The translations under genes were made by a program, and so were the position numbers. The notes under the pieces are model-generated. The model saw only the letters and a program-made list of their open reading frames with translations. It was not told where the DNA came from and ran no database searches. Of a stretch of 64,000 nucleotides of DNA, positions 14,299-25,719 are shown one piece after another. Position 1 is the stretch's first letter. Each line of letters starts with the position of its first letter. Origin of the DNA: Escherichia phage Ec_Makalu_002. The stretch lies in the sequence record MN709127.1. One strand, 5' to 3'.

Positions 14299-16350
14299 TT
14301 ACATTTTAAATTTATCCGGCATAGCGTCTACAGACACAAGATCAGCGATAAGCTGACGTAGAGTTGCCTTATCTGCTTTCTTACGTTCGGTTTTAGCTTC
14401 GGTAATGAAGCTGGAGAAAGACAGGTCAGAAGCAGGTTTAACAACACCTTCACGGATGAATGCATCACCGTCCGCGATCATCTCACCAGATTCTTGTAAT
14501 GCTGCCAGTTCATTTTTGTTCATAATATGTGCCTCGATGTAATAAGTTTCTTGTGAATCCGTCGATGCCGTAGCACGAGTTACCGTATCAAAGGATAACA
14601 CAACACCGCGAGGAAGTAAAATCTCGCATTCTTTGTAAGCAAATGCTTTGTTACCTACTGGCAATACAGGGATGTTTTCCGCGCCAGCAATGGAGAAAGC
14701 AACATTAGCGCCACCTTCACCGCGAGATCCCGCCATAGAATCAACACCAGCAACGGCACTAGCCACGTTTGCATTCCAGCCACCAAAAATATTAGGTGCA
14801 AGGGAAGTGCTCACATAGTTTTTAAAGTAAAACGCTTTTTGCTTACGTGCAGTTTCCCACATTTGCGACCGGAAGTCCATACCACGATACAAGATAGTAC
14901 CTGGATCAAGTTTAACACCATAGTTAGCAAATGCGTTATCCAGTGCATCACACATCTTGACCAATTCTTCTGGGTCTGCGATGCCTTCAAACTCTTCCAG
15001 CTTACGGTCGGTTAGGAAGTTGTTCATATTGATGTATGCTGCATCCGCATATTCGCTCAACACAAAACCTTCCGCGCCAGGCAGATCAAGATCAATATCT
15101 GCCATCATTTCACCCATGTTGCTAGCAATTGCTTCAAACATACCGGAAGCAACATTACGCAGGGCATCGGTTTTAATCTGCGTGATGTGACTACGCAGCA
15201 TTTCAGCTTTTACATCTGCTGGCATAGACTGGTCGACGCGATCCATTGCCAGGGCGGTGATCTTGTTTTCGAATACTTCCTCGCTCATGATTTCTTTTAA
15301 GCGTTTGATTGATGCTGCGATGACTTCCGCAGACAACGGATCATATTGATCCTGAACTTTTACCAGTTCGCTTACTGCATATTTTGCATCGGCTTCGCTT
15401 TCAAAAATAGTACGCATGAAACCATAGCGAGTGATAATATCACTTGTCCAGTCATTCAGAGAACGGGCGGTTGAACGTTCTAAGGCTTGACGGTCAATCA
15501 GAGTATTAAACTGTTTCTTAGGTTCTGCTTCGGTGATATCTTCTTCCGGTTTAAGATTAATTTTTTCTGGATGATTCACATAGTCGCTGTTATAGGTCGC
15601 TTGAGTTTTCAGCATTTCTTCTTTAGTCAAACGAGATTTAGCCGCTACGCGTTGTTCTGCTTCCGCGTTTCGTTCTTCTTCCGACACAAGACTAGCCGCA
15701 TACGCCTCATCTTTAGTCAGAGATTCACCAGTAGCCTTAGATACCCAGCGATCACCTAAATCACTTTCTACTTTAGTGAACAGGGATTCATCGAGTTTAA
15801 TCCCTTTAATCTTATCAATCGCCATCCCGCGACGTTTGACAACAACTAAAGCGATCTTTTTGCTGGTCATTACTTCCTGCTGGAATACTTCAAACTTCGG
15901 TGTACGACGCACCAAACGCTCTATAACGCGCTTAACCAGTTCGGTCTTACCTTTCATGCGGGATACGTTAAAACGGAACATAACAGCGTCTAATTGCGCT
16001 TTACGGGCTGTTTCCATGACCACATCAAAAGCACTTGACATAACTGCAATCGGGTTATCTCCTAGACCATTTTTAAGCTGTACAATACGACCGCTTTTGT
16101 TCATTTCGCACAGTACAACATGTGCGGTCTTGTCACCCATACGAATGATTTTAGGTGTTTTGTTGGTGAAGTTACAAAGACGGACAATCACATCTTTATC
16201 GCGTGTCTGTACTGCAAAAAGCTGTTTAGGATTCTGCTTAGGCTTTAAGCACTGTACCGGAGCAATACTGCCAAAGTTTTCTTCCTCTTCCGTCAACAGC
16301 CATTTCTCGAAAGATTCAATCATTAGATCGTCGATTTCTAAGTTAAACAT
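14299..16350 (-). CDS. alt: Alt ADP-ribosyltransferase (head-packaged)
   Basis: 683 aa (T4 Alt about 682); ART motifs YRG/STS/ECEILLPRG; position after gene 54. Confidence 0.85.
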   Translation of the reverse strand: MFNLEIDDLMIESFEKWLLTEEEENFGSIAPVQCLKPKQNPKQLFAVQTRDKDVIVRLCNFTNKTPKIIRMGDKTAHVVLCEMNKSGRIVQLKNGLGDNPIAVMSSAFDVVMETARKAQLDAVMFRFNVSRMKGKTELVKRVIERLVRRTPKFEVFQQEVMTSKKIALVVVKRRGMAIDKIKGIKLDESLFTKVESDLGDRWVSKATGESLTKDEAYAASLVSEEERNAEAEQRVAAKSRLTKEEMLKTQATYNSDYVNHPEKINLKPEEDITEAEPKKQFNTLIDRQALERSTARSLNDWTSDIITRYGFMRTIFESEADAKYAVSELVKVQDQYDPLSAEVIAASIKRLKEIMSEEVFENKITALAMDRVDQSMPADVKAEMLRSHITQIKTDALRNVASGMFEAIASNMGEMMADIDLDLPGAEGFVLSEYADAAYINMNNFLTDRKLEEFEGIADPEELVKMCDALDNAFANYGVKLDPGTILYRGMDFRSQMWETARKQKAFYFKNYVSTSLAPNIFGGWNANVASAVAGVDSMAGSRGEGGANVAFSIAGAENIPVLPVGNKAFAYKECEILLPRGVVLSFDTVTRATASTDSQETYYIEAHIMNKNELAALQESGEMIADGDAFIREGVVKPASDLSFSSFITEAKTERKKADKATLRQLIADLVSVDAMPDKFKM

Positions 16351-16417: not shown

Positions 16418-16630
16418 TTATAATGCACCATCGAGCAATTGCTCTAAGGTGTATCCTGAATAGTCTTTTTCAATCAGGATATATTTTCCTACTCGTTTAA
16501 TACAACCGCGCATTTCAACGTATTCTGCGTAGTTGATGGTGCGAGTTGTTCCATCTTCTAGTAAAGCAGTACCGATTTCGTTAATGCGGTCATAAGTTAC
16601 GTCGGTAATGATGATTTCGATGTTAGCCAT
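16418..16630 (-). CDS. hypothetical small protein (70 aa)
   Basis: ORF track; ATG with RBS; own upstream promoter. Confidence 0.5.
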   Translation of the reverse strand: MANIEIIITDVTYDRINEIGTALLEDGTTRTINYAEYVEMRGCIKRVGKYILIEKDYSGYTLEQLLDGAL

Positions 16631-16666
16631 TTGATACTCCTTAGTAGTTCGTTTCGGTATGGGTGT

Positions 16667-16695
16667 ATTATGATATACACCCTCTGTTATGTCAA
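16667..16695 (-). promoter_or_regulatory. sigma70-like early promoter (TTGACA-17-CATAAT)
   Basis: -35/-10 hexamers at 17-nt spacing on minus strand, upstream of conserved leader and RBS. Confidence 0.45.
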
Positions 16696-16701
16696 CAACT
16701 T

Positions 16702-16881
16702 TTAGAACATTTTTGAAATTAATTCTGCTTTGATTTCGCAGAGAACATCTAAAGATTTCTCGTCACCCGCTTTTGCTGCTTCTGCTTGCATTTTTGAAAT
16801 GGCTTCAATGTCAGTGCAATTATAAGCCGCTTGAACTTTAGCGATTGCGATGATTGCCGATTCGATGGTTAAGTGTTTCAT
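16702..16881 (-). CDS. hypothetical small protein (59 aa)
   Basis: Hand-translated (MKHLTIESAIIAIAKVQAAYNCTDIEA...); RBS AGGAGA; own promoter. Confidence 0.45.
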   Translation of the reverse strand: MKHLTIESAIIAIAKVQAAYNCTDIEAISKMQAEAAKAGDEKSLDVLCEIKAELISKMF

Positions 16882-16913
16882 GTTTGATTCTCCTTTCGTT
16901 TCGGTATGTGTGC

Positions 16914-16942
16914 AGTATAGGGGATCGCCGATCCCCTGTCAA
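16914..16942 (-). promoter_or_regulatory. sigma70-like early promoter with palindromic spacer (TTGACA-GGGGATCGGCGATCCCC-TATACT)
   Basis: Consensus -35, 17-nt GC-rich palindromic spacer with two GATC, -10 TATACT. Confidence 0.5.
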
Positions 16943-16949
16943 CAACTTT

Positions 16950-17504
16950 TTAGTTATTTTTTAATTGCTCATCTTGCAATAATGCAATCACATGCTGGCG
17001 ATGTTCTTCCGATTGAGGAACACCGAAAAAGTTTGTTTTGTAGAAATACTCTAATCGGTCTTCTCGTGTGCTCTCTTCCATCATGATCGCGGGTAGTCCA
17101 AGATTTCGGAAACGTCGCTTTTCTGCTGGCGTAAAATCACTGTAATACAACATAGAATCATCATTACCAGCAATGCTAAACTCATCCTTCATAAAGGAGA
17201 ATATTGCGTTTAAACGCTGTTTACCGTCCACGATTTCGATCTCATAGCGAGAGCCATCATCAATCTTAGCCATTGCGATAGCACCAACCGGAAAATCATT
17301 AATCAGGTTTTCGATAAACATACGTTTGTTTTCGGTGTCCCATACCAAAGGACGCTGATAATCTGGGTTCATGTTGATATAGCCATCTTCTAACCACGCC
17401 TCATAAACAGAGATGACAAAGTTTTTAGTATTGGTATAGTAACGGCGTTTAGGCGTTAAACGGTTCATGTTATAGTCTCCTGAATGGATCATCACGTAAA
17501 TCAA
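16950..17504 (-). CDS. DUF262 / ParB-like nuclease-domain protein (GmrS N-terminal-like), short form
   Basis: PDYQRPLVWD and DGKQRLNAI motifs; track start is TTG, ATG at about 17468 with AGGAG RBS more likely (172 aa). Confidence 0.65.
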   Translation of the reverse strand: MIYVMIHSGDYNMNRLTPKRRYYTNTKNFVISVYEAWLEDGYINMNPDYQRPLVWDTENKRMFIENLINDFPVGAIAMAKIDDGSRYEIEIVDGKQRLNAIFSFMKDEFSIAGNDDSMLYYSDFTPAEKRRFRNLGLPAIMMEESTREDRLEYFYKTNFFGVPQSEEHRQHVIALLQDEQLKNN

Positions 17505-17802
17505 TATCTTTTAAGAACTCATCCCATGAATGGCGGATAATGTTCTTAATTCTCCAGATAAGCGCAGGGATTGAACGCTCTCCCATCTGGAAGTAAGGAT
17601 CATATGATCCATATGCCCAATATGCTACTACAATTCCACAATCGGCGCAATAATATTCTATTTCACTTGCTGGCGACCAAAGTCCATCAATATGATCACG
17701 GATCTTGCTTTCGATGTTATGGCTATGGCAATCAGGGCAACGGATGCAATGACCTTGTTTATCGTAATTTGACGTTAGCGAATACTTAAACAATCTCATC
17801 AT
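17470..17802 (-). CDS. zinc-ribbon protein (two CxxC pairs)
   Basis: CIRCPDC ... CADCG; ATGA-coupled to upstream gene. Confidence 0.5.
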   Translation of the reverse strand: MMRLFKYSLTSNYDKQGHCIRCPDCHSHNIESKIRDHIDGLWSPASEIEYYCADCGIVVAYWAYGSYDPYFQMGERSIPALIWRIKNIIRHSWDEFLKDIDLRDDPFRRL

Positions 17803-18515
17803 AGATCCTTATTGGCTTCAAATACTGCCTTTGCGAATCCTCGCGGGGTAAGTGACCTGATAGTCTTTGTTCTGGTTCCTTTCCCGCCTAGCTTAGAATG
17901 CTGTTTACTGTACCCTTTATTAATCTGCAACGGTTTCTTTTCTGGCATTATAAAGCCTTGTCCGGTCCATAAGCAAGTCTTTTTCGGGTACATATCACGG
18001 GCGGCAATATACTCAGGAAACGTAGGATGCTTATCATCTTCCGGCAAATAACCGCCATATTCCCACGGATGGAACATGTAATCAGGCTTACGCCACATGC
18101 TAGAGATAACGCTTACAGGATTCTCTATCATGTAGGGAACTCCTAGCCATTCACCCAAATAAGCGGTTATTTTAGCTGCCCTTACATCATGAACTTGAAT
18201 TAATGGTCCTTGTTCTCGTTTCTTTCGTTCAAAGTGCGCAGCGCCACTAACAGCTAAATTGGTGCATGGTGGGAATGCAAAGATAATATCCGGTTTCCCC
18301 CATTCAAGGTCCATTGCTCTTTCCAGCCAATTTAAATCAATCCATGTGTTTACATATGTAATGTTTGGATGTTCAAATCGGGTATTATATTTTTTGTATG
18401 TACCGTGGTCGCCATCGTCAGCATTAAAGCAGATCACCTTATGACCTGCTTTAGCCCATTCTAACCCCATTATCCCCGATCCGTCAAAGTTGCAGAATAT
18501 TAATTTTTGTTTCAT
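17799..18515 (-). CDS. C5-cytosine-methyltransferase-like protein (SAM-dependent MTase fold, no obvious target-recognition domain)
   Basis: Motif I-like FDGSGIMG, motif IV-like FPPC with catalytic Cys, motif VI-like IENP; 238 aa. Confidence 0.5.
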   Translation of the reverse strand: MKQKLIFCNFDGSGIMGLEWAKAGHKVICFNADDGDHGTYKKYNTRFEHPNITYVNTWIDLNWLERAMDLEWGKPDIIFAFPPCTNLAVSGAAHFERKKREQGPLIQVHDVRAAKITAYLGEWLGVPYMIENPVSVISSMWRKPDYMFHPWEYGGYLPEDDKHPTFPEYIAARDMYPKKTCLWTGQGFIMPEKKPLQINKGYSKQHSKLGGKGTRTKTIRSLTPRGFAKAVFEANKDL

Positions 18516-18757
18516 ATACGCCCCTTTAACCCAACACAGATTTTAGAAGGTTCTTTGCCGTGCCACATTAAGTAAATTCCGTTAATGCGTCCTTGTTTTG
18601 TATATGATTCTTTTCTGATCTTCTTATAGTGTCGTGCTTCCTCAGCCGATTGTTTAGAATGTCGATCATAAAGGAAGAGGAACAAAGGCCAACCATTAGC
18701 GGCCTTAATGCAGTTATTCAAAAATTCCTTATTTCGTTTAATTAATTTTCTTTTCAC
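18512..18757 (-). CDS. hypothetical basic protein (81 aa)
   Basis: ORF track; apparent GTG start overlapping upstream stop. Confidence 0.4.
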   Translation of the reverse strand: MKRKLIKRNKEFLNNCIKAANGWPLFLFLYDRHSKQSAEEARHYKKIRKESYTKQGRINGIYLMWHGKEPSKICVGLKGRI

Positions 18758-19005
18758 GCTGCCCCCATTGGTTTGATAGTAACAGAATCTAAAAGACCTT
18801 TGTTAGCCAGTTCGCGGCAAGTTTTCAGATCCGCAACTTCCCAGCCAGCCGCAATAAGGTTATCAATGAGGCTGTTAGCAACTTCTTCGCTCATGAAAGA
18901 GCACTGTTTGCCGATGGTGTAGCGTACACGCTGTAATTTCAGTTTACGGAAGCCTTTAACGTTCAGGTCTTTAGCGATTTTCTTTGCGGTTTCGATGTTA
19001 GCCAT
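18754..19005 (-). CDS. hypothetical protein (83 aa), first gene of the 5-gene operon
   Basis: ATG with RBS and promoter just upstream. Confidence 0.5.
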   Translation of the reverse strand: MANIETAKKIAKDLNVKGFRKLKLQRVRYTIGKQCSFMSEEVANSLIDNLIAAGWEVADLKTCRELANKGLLDSVTIKPMGAA

Positions 19006-19045
19006 TGTTTGATTCTCCTAAGTGGTATCTCGTCTTGATGGTTGT

Positions 19046-19074
19046 ATTGTAGGGGAGTTATCCTCCCCTGTCAA
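19046..19074 (-). promoter_or_regulatory. sigma70-like early promoter for the 19005-16950 operon (TTGACA-GGGGAGGATAACTCCCC-TACAAT)
   Basis: -35/-10 at 17-nt spacing; palindromic spacer; conserved leader. Confidence 0.5.
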
Positions 19075-19088
19075 CACTTTTTATAAAA

Positions 19089-19256
19089 TTATTTGTTAAT
19101 TTCTGGTGCGTTGCTAGGATAGTAACCTTCTTTAACTCCGAGGTATTTCGCAACCATCCCTACAATCTTCTGTGCTACTACAATGTCAAATTTCAGATAA
19201 TCTTCGCCGTGGGTTTCAATGATATATGCTTCACATGCTGCTTTAGTCTCGAACAT
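19089..19256 (-). CDS. hypothetical small protein (55 aa), paralog A of the 22372-22539 gene
   Basis: Hand-translated MFETKAACEAYIIETHGEDYLKFDIVVAQKIVGMVAKYLGVKEGYYPSNAPEINK. Confidence 0.5.
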   Translation of the reverse strand: MFETKAACEAYIIETHGEDYLKFDIVVAQKIVGMVAKYLGVKEGYYPSNAPEINK

Positions 19257-19289
19257 TTTGATTCTCCTATTTCGTTTCGGTATGTGTGT

Positions 19290-19318
19290 ATTATAGGGGA
19301 TCTCCCGATCCCCGTCAA
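19290..19318 (-). promoter_or_regulatory. sigma70-like early promoter (TTGACG-17-TATAAT)
   Basis: Palindromic GC spacer GGGATCGGGAGATCCCC. Confidence 0.5.
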
Positions 19319-19332
19319 CAACTTTTTTAAAA

Positions 19333-19614
19333 TTATTCGTGATTAGTTTCGATATTGTGCATTTTGCACCAGTTCAGCCAATCGCCAAGATCTTGATAGT
19401 TGATGCTTTTATCTGCTGCCATCGTTTTTGTCTTGATACCCATATGTGCGTTATGAGTAAGCATTTTTACAGTGAACTCAATTTTATCGCCTTTAGCTTT
19501 AACATCAACCAGTTTGGTCCACTGGCTACCAGCACCGCGAATGTTCATACCAACGATGTTTCCGATGTATGCTTCTTTGTTGTTCAGGATTTCGGTTGCT
19601 TTGATGAATTTCAT
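19333..19614 (-). CDS. hypothetical protein (93 aa)
   Basis: ORF track; ATG, RBS, own promoter. Confidence 0.5.
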   Translation of the reverse strand: MKFIKATEILNNKEAYIGNIVGMNIRGAGSQWTKLVDVKAKGDKIEFTVKMLTHNAHMGIKTKTMAADKSINYQDLGDWLNWCKMHNIETNHE

Positions 19615-19647
19615 TTTTGATTCTCCAGTTCGTTTCGGTATGGGTGT

Positions 19648-19676
19648 ATTATGCTATGTTCTTACTTTGGTGTCAA
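19648..19676 (-). promoter_or_regulatory. sigma70-like early promoter (TTGACA-17-CATAAT)
   Basis: Hexamers at 17-nt spacing upstream of conserved leader. Confidence 0.4.
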
Positions 19677-19684
19677 CAACTTTT

Positions 19685-19954
19685 TTAGATATTTTCAGAA
19701 ATAAATTTTAAAACTTGACGTAAATGTTTCTCATCTTTGATAGTCGCCGGAAGTTCTTCTTTTACTTCCTGTGCAAGATAGATATTTCCGTTCCAAGTGA
19801 AAGACCCGTCTTCGTTTACGCGATAGCTGAACATCCATTCGCAATCATTTTCGATTTCATATACACACAGAAGGGTGTAATCTTCAAAGCTATTGATTTC
19901 AAGGTCGAAGCCGTGGCGTTTTGCAAAGTTGGTAGTGGTTTTAGTCAGTGCCAT
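19685..19954 (-). CDS. hypothetical protein (89 aa)
   Basis: ORF track; ATG and RBS. Confidence 0.5.
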   Translation of the reverse strand: MALTKTTTNFAKRHGFDLEINSFEDYTLLCVYEIENDCEWMFSYRVNEDGSFTWNGNIYLAQEVKEELPATIKDEKHLRQVLKFISENI

Positions 19955-23747: not shown

Positions 23748-24224
23748 TTATTTTTCTTGATGCTCGCGCTCGTACTTTTCGAAATAAAATTCTACTGGCT
23801 GATCGTGGATTGAAAGCAAGCCAAAGCGTTTAGCCGCACGTAATCCCATGTTACGTTGAATGTACTTCTGGAAGTTCTCGCGTATACACTTACGCCAGTA
23901 TTCTAAGCCCATACAGCTTTTGTAAAGATTGCATTGCACACAAGCCGGATTCATGTTGTCAAGTATATCGTGCTCCGGTTTATGCATTCCTACAACCTTA
24001 TACTTCCACGACCCATCATCATTACGGGCAATTCGTCCATTTTCATCATAGACTACTTTTGAGCGTCGCAATACTGGTTTGATGTGGTCTGCGTGCCAGC
24101 GATCCCCTAGTTCCTCGCCACAATAGGCACAACGTCCACCGTATTTCATTTTCAGGATCTGGCGTTGCTCTTTCTTTGACAATTTTTTAGGTTTAGGGGC
24201 TTTCGCCCCTTCATTATCACACAT
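23748..24224 (-). CDS. HNH endonuclease
   Basis: CAYCGEEL...WHADHIKP...N...CVQCN (HNH with Zn-ligand Cys pairs); 158 aa. Confidence 0.7.
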   Translation of the reverse strand: MCDNEGAKAPKPKKLSKKEQRQILKMKYGGRCAYCGEELGDRWHADHIKPVLRRSKVVYDENGRIARNDDGSWKYKVVGMHKPEHDILDNMNPACVQCNLYKSCMGLEYWRKCIRENFQKYIQRNMGLRAAKRFGLLSIHDQPVEFYFEKYEREHQEK

Positions 24225-25719
24225 CGAATACCTCTTTTACTGTATTTGCAGTGGTCTTGTCGTAGCGAATACGTTTGATGATTGGGAGAAATAAAGAGAA
24301 CTCCGGTTCATCTTCTTTACGTGATTTGCTGCGGATATATCCGTTGCATGTCATCTCAATGACTTTTCCAATCAGGTTATGACGGTCAGCCCATAACATT
24401 TCTCGGTCAAGTTCATTTCGACGATCGAACGGAATTACACGTTCAATACCATCATCACCTTTTTCGGTTGTGGTGTCTGTCAATCCCGATCCGGTGTTAG
24501 TCATCATTCGTCCGCACGCACTACGGACAGTAAAACCGCCTACCTTGTTAGGTTCTTTACTGTGCGGATATACATCAACAATTTCCGCGTCGAAGTCAAT
24601 CACTTCTTTAAATTTAACCTGGTCTTTACTGCGACGATCTTCAAATACACCATGTAAATTTTTAAGGATAATACCTTCTAATCCCATGTTGACATAACGA
24701 TGATATACTTCGCGAGCTTCATCGATATTGTTAACTACAGTATTTTCGATTATCTGAACACGAGGATCGTTAAGTTCTTCAACAATCTGTTTTAGTTCTT
24801 CGAATCGATCTTTATATTGCTTCGTTGCTTTCTCGTTTCCGTAATACACATCACGGTCGATAACATCCCAGACAGTGTAAACAATACATTGGGCTTCTTC
24901 TTTTGGAATAGTTCCTTTCAGTGATTTGTTGAGGATACCATTTCCGGTCTGACGGTCTGCAACAACGGATTCTTTCACTGCTTCCGCTACTGGCGTTAAT
25001 GGCATTTCCTCTTCTTCAAATATCCATGATAGAGTACCATCATAAACGCTCTCAACGAAGTTCTGCGCTGGTGTTTGAGAAAGGGTAGGCATATATACCA
25101 ACTCACCATCTAAAACAATTCCACGGCCTCGTAGACGCTCTAAAACAGCAAACAAATCATCCAGCCCCTGATAGGTATTACCTGAACGGGTATAGATTGC
25201 TAATGTTTCTCCGTCAATATCAGCCATACCACGAGCGCCATCGCTTTTAAGTTGTGCATACGCCGGATATTTGATATTGGCAATAGTCTTATCAGAACAT
25301 GACGATGCAAGGTGGCACGGCTGCTGAGGAATCAGCTTCTTCCATACCTTGTTTGCGGTGGTAGCGGAACAACCGCATTCCAGATCACGATTCAGGACCA
25401 TCATTGCAACTTTAGCATCATCTTCTGACAAGCAAGTCAGAGTATCGGTAACTAGCTGTAATGCAGCATTACCAGTTACTTGACGCGTGGCAAGTTTATT
25501 TTTAAAGACCTGTAATGCACCGGATAAAGACAATACAGACGAATAGCGAGACGGTTTATCGTATTTCTTTACGCCAAACGTAACCTGCTTGCAATATGCC
25601 AGATAAAAGCATTCTTTCAGCGTTTCATTGCTTGCAGATTCTTTCAGGATCTTTTCTTTCAGCGATGTTTTGTCAGTAGCTGCAAGCTGATTAATGATAT
25701 TAAGAATTGACATTTTCAC
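24217..25719 (-). CDS. 30: ATP-dependent DNA ligase gp30
   Basis: AQLKSDGARG adenylation motif with catalytic Lys; aligns with remembered T4 ligase; ATG at about 25713 likely. Confidence 0.9.
   Translation of the reverse strand: MKMSILNIINQLAATDKTSLKEKILKESASNETLKECFYLAYCKQVTFGVKKYDKPSRYSSVLSLSGALQVFKNKLATRQVTGNAALQLVTDTLTCLSEDDAKVAMMVLNRDLECGCSATTANKVWKKLIPQQPCHLASSCSDKTIANIKYPAYAQLKSDGARGMADIDGETLAIYTRSGNTYQGLDDLFAVLERLRGRGIVLDGELVYMPTLSQTPAQNFVESVYDGTLSWIFEEEEMPLTPVAEAVKESVVADRQTGNGILNKSLKGTIPKEEAQCIVYTVWDVIDRDVYYGNEKATKQYKDRFEELKQIVEELNDPRVQIIENTVVNNIDEAREVYHRYVNMGLEGIILKNLHGVFEDRRSKDQVKFKEVIDFDAEIVDVYPHSKEPNKVGGFTVRSACGRMMTNTGSGLTDTTTEKGDDGIERVIPFDRRNELDREMLWADRHNLIGKVIEMTCNGYIRSKSRKEDEPEFSLFLPIIKRIRYDKTTANTVKEVFDV

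Follow-up and report, generated by a model that had tools for sequence, protein, structure and literature searches.

A five-gene early operon of the Krischvirus Ec_Makalu_002 is probably a PeSL-bounded mosaic of accessory genes, including a Dcm-like methyltransferase and a stand-alone ParB-DUF262 protein

Escherichia phage Ec_Makalu_002 (sequence record MN709127.1) carries a unit of five closely packed minus-strand genes at positions 16950-19074 of the stretch analysed here (64,000 nucleotides, called the window below). The window represents a Krischvirus of the RB49/Phi1/GEC-3S group. Its five-gene unit, whose members are designated A to E from the promoter onwards, is probably a mosaic of independently acquired accessory genes and not one system. 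It is bounded by two PeSLs, composite motifs in which an early promoter contains a stem-loop. This reading is carried by the architecture of the unit, by the folds and motifs of its products, by the families to which they belong and by the missing conserved linkage between them. The original prediction had taken the same operon for one candidate DNA-modification or anti-restriction module that had not been described before. The features of the unit are as follows.

19046-19074, minus strand: upstream PeSL, an early sigma-70 promoter (TTGACA-17-TACAAT) with a spacer hairpin GGGGAG...CTCCCC
18754-19005, minus strand: gene A, 83 amino acids, ATG start; phrog_14908
18512-18757, minus strand: gene B, 81 amino acids, basic, GTG start, GTGA overlap with A; phrog_7065
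17799-18515, minus strand: gene C, 238 amino acids, predicted Dcm-like orphan C5-cytosine DNA methyltransferase with minimal target-recognition region, ATGA overlap with B; phrog_757
17470-17802, minus strand: gene D, 110 amino acids, zinc-ribbon protein, ATGA overlap with C; phrog_2993
16950-17468, minus strand: gene E, 172 amino acids, stand-alone compact ParB-DUF262 protein, ATG start 1 nucleotide past the TAA of D
16914-16942, minus strand: downstream PeSL, a hairpin and the promoter for the following gene; 3' boundary of the unit

All five predicted open reading frames (ORFs) are present. Translational coupling by ATGA/GTGA overlaps, originally proposed for the whole series, applies to the A/B, B/C and C/D junctions; D and E are separated by a single nucleotide (TAA-C-ATG). 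The length of E had been left between 172 and 184 amino acids. Its ATG is preceded by a GGAG Shine-Dalgarno sequence and gives 172 residues, the length also annotated in phage GEC-3S, and the 184-residue form starting at TTG is unlikely. A single promoter for all five genes is well supported: the near-consensus TTGACA-17-TACAAT promoter lies at 19074-19046, and the next one of equal strength (16942-16914) appears only after the stop codon of E. Internal promoter-like and terminator-like matches are weak, the former numbering 11 against a mean of 10.3 in shuffled sequences.

In both flanking promoters a G+C hairpin is embedded, with free energies of -19.4 and -14.1 kcal/mol (z-scores of -4.6 and -2.9), and the promoter and stem-loop composite motif occurs in six copies in the window, where none is expected. 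A promoter is annotated in GEC-3S at the site homologous to the upstream PeSL. Such PeSLs were described in RB49 and phi1, members of the same genus, as promoter-terminator cassettes flanking shuffled ORFans (Arbiol et al. 2010, PMC2839356). The unit of Ec_Makalu_002 shares with them the motif TTGAC-GGGGA...TCCCC-TAYAAT, which is present on both flanks. It differs from them in two respects: five genes, not one or two, are located between two PeSLs, and genes have been gained or lost within the unit at start/stop overlaps and not at the PeSLs. Across 16700-19400, Escherichia phage Ec_Makalu_003 shares 99.9% identity with the window, and about 55 further Krischvirus genomes, including RB49, Phi1, JSE, GEC-3S and TB34, share 97-98%.

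Co-occurrence across unrelated genomes, by which a conserved multi-gene system is recognized, was not found for these genes. The context of homologues in other phages, a check suggested with the original prediction, reveals no shared linkage outside Krischvirus: homologues of A, B, D or E were found within 2.5 kb of a C homologue in none of 78 non-Krischvirus viral loci (tblastn at 1e-3; phmmer at E<=10). Homologues of E with 35-39% identity are present in RB43, in the Slopekvirus Matisse, in the P22-like phage UPF_BP1 and in lambdoid prophages of Salmonella. Their neighbours are unrelated, and both C and D are absent from the E loci of these three other phage groups and of the prophages. The genes directly upstream of E in RB43, Matisse and UPF_BP1 were tested as candidate D homologues and rejected. 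The temperate phages carry their E homologues among the early-left accessory genes that follow erf/abc or recET. The five genes thus differ in their phage distribution, and the content of the unit varies within Krischvirus as well. In one IMG/VR genome (L003, 5822-6001), B has been lost by a deletion whose ends coincide with the GTGA/ATGA junctions, so that GTG becomes the start codon of C; the N-terminus of A also differs. In phage kaaroe (1069-1248), an extra ORF of 59 amino acids, coupled by ATGA, lies between D and E. The proposal of one module is not supported by these results, neither by the isolation of C from the other four genes in 78 of 78 loci nor by the unrelated neighbours of E.

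The identification of the 238-residue product of C as a C5-methyltransferase-like protein proved correct. C matches PHROG 757, annotated "DNA methyltransferase", at 2e-90. Its match to Pfam PF00145 reaches 13.9 bits, under the gathering cut-off of 22, and covers residues 10-100 only; that profile fails to capture the C family because of its divergence and short length. The family consists of 7,317 homologues of about 230 amino acids and is found in 1,524 phage records, among them Drexlerviridae, T1-like Klebsiella siphophages (genomes of about 49-52 kb), rV5-like phages and others. In an alignment of 16 diverse homologues, FDGSG, PPC, ENPV, KK and RSLTPRGFA are invariant. They comprise the S-adenosylmethionine (SAM)-binding motif I of the form FxGxG (F10-D-G12-S13-G14), the catalytic motifs IV (P83-C84) and VI (E131-N132-P133-V134) and the pair K178-K179. 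A 45-residue insert is conserved in addition to the RSLTPRGFA segment.

An AlphaFold2 (AF2) model of C, with a predicted local distance difference test (pLDDT) score of 84 and a predicted template modelling (pTM) score of 0.85, suggests a C5-methyltransferase fold. The top 25 PDB structures matched by the model in Foldseek are all DNMT3A, DNMT3B or DNMT1, with a best E of 1.5e-7. Similarly to the catalytic domains of DNMT3A and DNMT3B (PDB IDs: 4u7t and 6kdt; Foldseek E of about 1e-7, probability 1.0), the modelled C has a Rossmann core and a very small target-recognition region. Its identity to them is only 14-17% and its template modelling (TM) score about 0.45-0.5; moreover, DNMT3A and DNMT3B form tetramers with regulatory domains, while no such partners are evident for C. 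Direct sequence searches of PDB with C and E, and with a profile of C, returned nothing usable, and no NCBIfam model matches A, C or E.

Over its full length, C is 56% identical (E=4e-92) to Dcm of phage KarlJaspers Bas06 (236 amino acids; 711-bp gene bas06_0055). The KarlJaspers genome is 95% identical to that of phage K42, in which the function of this protein was studied (10.1101/2023.08.16.553469). According to that preprint, loss of the 711-bp dcm allows K42 to escape from retron Ec86, whereas Dcm supplied from a plasmid raises 5-methylcytosine (5mC) on the multicopy single-stranded DNA (msDNA), as measured by liquid chromatography coupled to mass spectrometry (LC-MS), and triggers Ec86. 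The C82A/E128A/K175A/K176A mutant is inactive, and the closest structure to K42 Dcm is DNMT3A. The CCWGG specificity of K42 Dcm was assumed from the host Dcm and backed by site mutagenesis alone (10.1101/2023.08.16.553469). Residues C82, E128, K175 and K176 of the K42/KarlJaspers Dcm align with C84, E131, K178 and K179 of C. The proteins belong to the same length class, share the Cys, Glu and Lys-Lys residues as well as DNMT3A as best structural neighbour, and both are encoded by orphan genes without a cognate nuclease. Their genomic settings are different: dcm of KarlJaspers, a member of Drexlerviridae, lies among small hypothetical genes near a helicase, C in a Krischvirus PeSL cassette. Because of the full-length homology and the aligned catalytic residues, C is, judged by its sequence, part of a phage Dcm-like family in which one member has been characterised experimentally, and not novel, contrary to the view of the module as undescribed. 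From this relationship we infer the enzymatic activity of the Krischvirus protein and its target site.

Gene E matches PF03235 (GmrSD_N/DUF262) with 73.2 bits, well above the gathering cut-off of 33.2 (E=4e-20), so that its assignment as a DUF262/ParB-like protein stands. The three motifs by which DUF262 has been defined, QRxxxW, DGxQR and FxxxN (PMC12065111), are found in E as QRxxxW (38-43), DGKQR (81-85) and FxxxN (142-146) and are invariant or nearly so in 54 family sequences. They contain the nucleotide-binding residues Q38-R39...W43, D81-G82-K-Q84-R85 and F142...N146. The AF2 model of E (pLDDT 95.5) matches ParB/Noc CTPase domains, PadC, the N-domain of BrxU, KorB and sulfiredoxin (Srx) folds, and it matches viral DUF262 models with TM scores of 0.75-0.81. 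A word-indexed search with E gave 7 proteins; exhaustive and profile searches were needed to reveal the extent of the family, the former giving 6,168 relatives and the latter at least 1,159 stand-alone proteins of about 170 amino acids from the phages and prophages that infect enterobacteria, vibrios and other hosts. Many relatives of E are 260-290 amino acids long (for example P0145, P0152, P0157 and P0163), with the compact DUF262 at the C-terminus preceded by an N-terminal region of about 120 amino acids without Pfam match.

The presence of PF03235, the three motifs and the modelled ParB/Srx fold are traits common to E and the ParB-DUF262 sensor domains of GmrSD/BrxU, SspE, DndB and the Menshen protein NsnA. 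Unlike these proteins, E is the domain alone in a compact form of about 140 residues. Its sequence ends at residue 172 with neither a ParBDB DNA-binding domain nor a nuclease domain, and therefore E cannot alone be a GmrSD-type enzyme. DUF1524/HNH is absent from E, a nuclease of this type is not fused to it, no adjacent gmrD is present, and no nuclease family was detected among the five products with Pfam, NCBIfam and PADLOC. The same three resources revealed no dndACDE, sspABCD or dpdA/C-type families in the operon and the flanking ORFs. The Menshen NsnA profile is matched at 1e-20, but only over positions 47-188 of 385, and the PD-T4-2_A profile at 5e-12. In contrast to Menshen (NsnABC), the unit includes no ATPase or effector gene, E has no NsnB- or NsnC-like neighbours, and it is phage-encoded and early. 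E is a DUF262-family member and not a component of a GmrSD, Menshen or Dnd/Dpd system. The literature found on DUF262 function concerns host defence systems only, with no experimental work on the family of E.

Published data on DNA modification are available for a close relative of Ec_Makalu_002. Krischvirus TB34, which matches the window at 97.8% identity over the operon region, has canonical DNA, with no modified nucleosides detected by high-performance liquid chromatography-mass spectrometry (HPLC-MS), and this DNA is not cut in vitro by BrxU, an enzyme that cleaves 5mC-containing DNA (PMC13390438). Phage SAP, 99.96% identical to TB34, was reported to contain hydroxymethylcytosine (hmC) and glucosyl-hmC, formed by an unexplained route, and the published single-nucleotide polymorphism analysis of the two phages (Snippy) gave no leads (PMC13390438). 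We compared SAP and TB34 across the operon and 1.5 kb on each side and found no substitution; the five coding sequences are identical, which rules out the operon as the cause of the modification difference. In SAP, the PeSL just 3' of E is duplicated in tandem (80 bp, SAP positions 1683-1763); the remaining differences at this locus are indels of a single base in the regions of three other early promoters.

Several observations weigh against the mosaic of independent genes or against the role that it gives to C. The tight coupling fits co-function of the genes, and so does the fact that 56 Krischvirus records all retain A, C, D and E, with identities of 95-100%. With an overall identity of about 97% among those genomes, however, this joint conservation reflects shared ancestry and is not independent evidence. 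Co-occurrence was tested at the level of sequence, by which a structurally analogous partner beside C or E would be missed. The virion DNA of TB34 is without detectable modified nucleoside (PMC13390438), and the action of this C protein on phage DNA is therefore putative; bulk modification by C in TB34 is excluded, while sparse site-specific 5mC may still occur. Finally, CCWGG is represented by 27 sites in the window against 68 expected and is the most depleted word of the form NNWNN, which is unexpected if C fully protected CCWGG. No signature of 5mC deamination is seen at CCWGG, CTTGG/CCAAG being depleted and not enriched. The depletion thus looks like restriction-site avoidance and does not settle the specificity of C. 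Avoidance of restriction sites is strong across the window: GAATTC, GGTACC and CTGCAG are missing altogether (37, 17 and 12 expected, respectively), and GGCC and CCCGG reach 0.43 and 0.2 of expectation, with GATC at expectation.

If the unit is a mosaic, it would function as follows. One strong early sigma-70 promoter would give rise to a polycistronic mRNA, on which overlapping stop and start codons would couple translation, so that the five genes would share the timing of their expression and not a pathway. C would bind SAM, flip out the target cytosine and attack its C6 via Cys84 with the assistance of Glu131, and would methylate a short motif in duplex DNA; in line with the proposal for its K42 relative, this motif may be CCWGG. 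Replicating phage DNA may in this way be shielded from cognate restriction enzymes, at the cost of triggering retron Ec86. E would be a nucleotide-binding ParB-DUF262 switch independent of C; within the mosaic explanation, it may tentatively be regarded as an NTP-dependent early factor that interferes with the host or its defences and acts apart from C.

A more specific role of E, equally unrelated to C, is that of an effector: a ParB/Srx-fold NTPase or nuclease directed at host or competitor DNA, causing shut-off or superinfection exclusion in the manner of the plasmid fertility inhibitor Osa. Osa and the N-domain of pNOB8 ParB are indeed among the structural matches of E, the nucleotide-binding motifs are invariant, E is expressed early, and its prophage copies are found in accessory regions, a frequent location of exclusion genes. 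The Osa matches are, however, weak (probability 0.30-0.35, TM about 0.3), no nuclease motif is identifiable, and no experimental data were found for any member of the E family. We regard this role as unlikely.

The idea of an integrated module assigns methylation of phage DNA to C and makes E a nuclease-less, dominant-negative decoy of sensors of the GmrSD/BrxU/SspE/Menshen type, by which the 5mC-containing genome would be shielded, with D, A and B as accessory proteins. Co-transcription of C and E in this phage is in its favour, and so are the motifs that E shares with defence DUF262 domains, its NsnA and PD-T4-2_A matches and the appearance of BrxU, which cuts 5mC DNA (PMC13390438), among its structural matches. 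In Type IV systems made up of two genes, ParB_n-only proteins are known to act as partners of GmrSD enzymes (PMC12373910), and the temperate-phage homologues of E stand beside anti-RecBCD and recombination genes in early-left accessory regions. Nevertheless, linkage of C and E is confined to Krischvirus, and each family is present in many phages without the other nearby. The unmodified TB34 DNA that BrxU left uncut (PMC13390438) would offer little 5mC for E to protect. An enzyme or a switch, and not an inert decoy, is suggested by how strictly the nucleotide-binding residues are conserved. Taken together, these points make a module of this kind quite improbable.

A bolder proposal, which we hold to be just as improbable, is that E and its at least 1,159 phage and prophage relatives of about 170 amino acids form a new anti-defence class. 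Its members would be NTP-dependent, nuclease-less mimics of sensor domains that poison GmrSD/BrxU, SspE, Menshen, PD-T4-2 and Dazbog; in Krischvirus, their co-expression with Dcm would compensate for the drawbacks of carrying 5mC.

Two-subunit C5 methyltransferases, for example M.AquI, do exist. It is nonetheless very improbable that C is merely a catalytic core to which D supplies target recognition in trans: C falls about 100 amino acids short of the classical C5 methyltransferases of bacteria, D comes immediately after it with an ATGA overlap and zinc ribbons are often nucleic-acid binders, but no D homologue is found near a C homologue in 78 of 78 loci, Felixounavirus and other phages encode D homologues with no C beside them, C with its 45-residue insert and RSLTPRGFA segment superposes on DNMT3A, which has a small recognition domain of its own, and plasmid-borne K42 Dcm alone raises 5mC and triggers Ec86 (10.1101/2023.08.16.553469).

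The three remaining genes, A, B and D, differ in their distribution. A is an ORFan restricted to Krischvirus, all of its 56 records being of Krischvirus type. It weakly matches the PADLOC profile of the defence reverse transcriptase RT_UG35 (E=2.6e-5) at C-terminal positions 722-785 of 938; the match could be due to chance, or A could be a phage copy of a domain of the defence protein. For B there are 172 records, some of them from Dhakavirus-, Karamvirus-, T5- and Vi1-like phages. Within Krischvirus, B is present in 48 records and A, C, D and E in 56 each; B is the dispensable and most variable member of the operon. The zinc-ribbon assignment of D holds by the visible motif CxxCxxC...CxxC, with a weak match to PF08271 (E=4e-4) under the cut-off. 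Homologues of D are encoded by Felixounavirus, by SP8, BRET and SE1Kor (genomes of about 57-60 kb) and by others, in no case beside homologues of C or E.

The unit was correctly placed in the interval between alt and gene 30. One flank is alt (14299-16350), whose GEC-3S homologue is annotated as Alt-like, and the other is DNA ligase (24217-25719, PF01068). Downstream of E lies an ORF of 59 amino acids with its own promoter. The adjacent units between alt and the ligase gene (16418-16881 and 19089-19954, minus strand) are single small ORFans of 55-93 amino acids, and each of them lies behind a PeSL or early promoter of its own. Compared with these neighbours, a unit of five genes is unusually long for the hyperplastic region between alt and ligase.

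What appeared to be a new modification module of T-even phages is better read as a PeSL cassette whose accessory genes are unrelated to one another, and the comparison of SAP and TB34 indicates that this operon does not account for the published difference in their modification. Since the C family includes the phage Dcm that triggers Ec86, Krischviruses are predicted to be potential Ec86 triggers. The Krischviruses MIZ2, MIZ3 and MIZ6 were isolated on E. coli B, which is mildly puzzling beside this prediction. BL21(DE3) is a derivative of E. coli B. It has a native Ec86 operon (10.1101/2023.08.16.553469). The phage DUF262-only family to which E belongs is large and has intact nucleotide-binding motifs; it is a reasonable anti-defence candidate and would be a sensible target of anti-defence screening.

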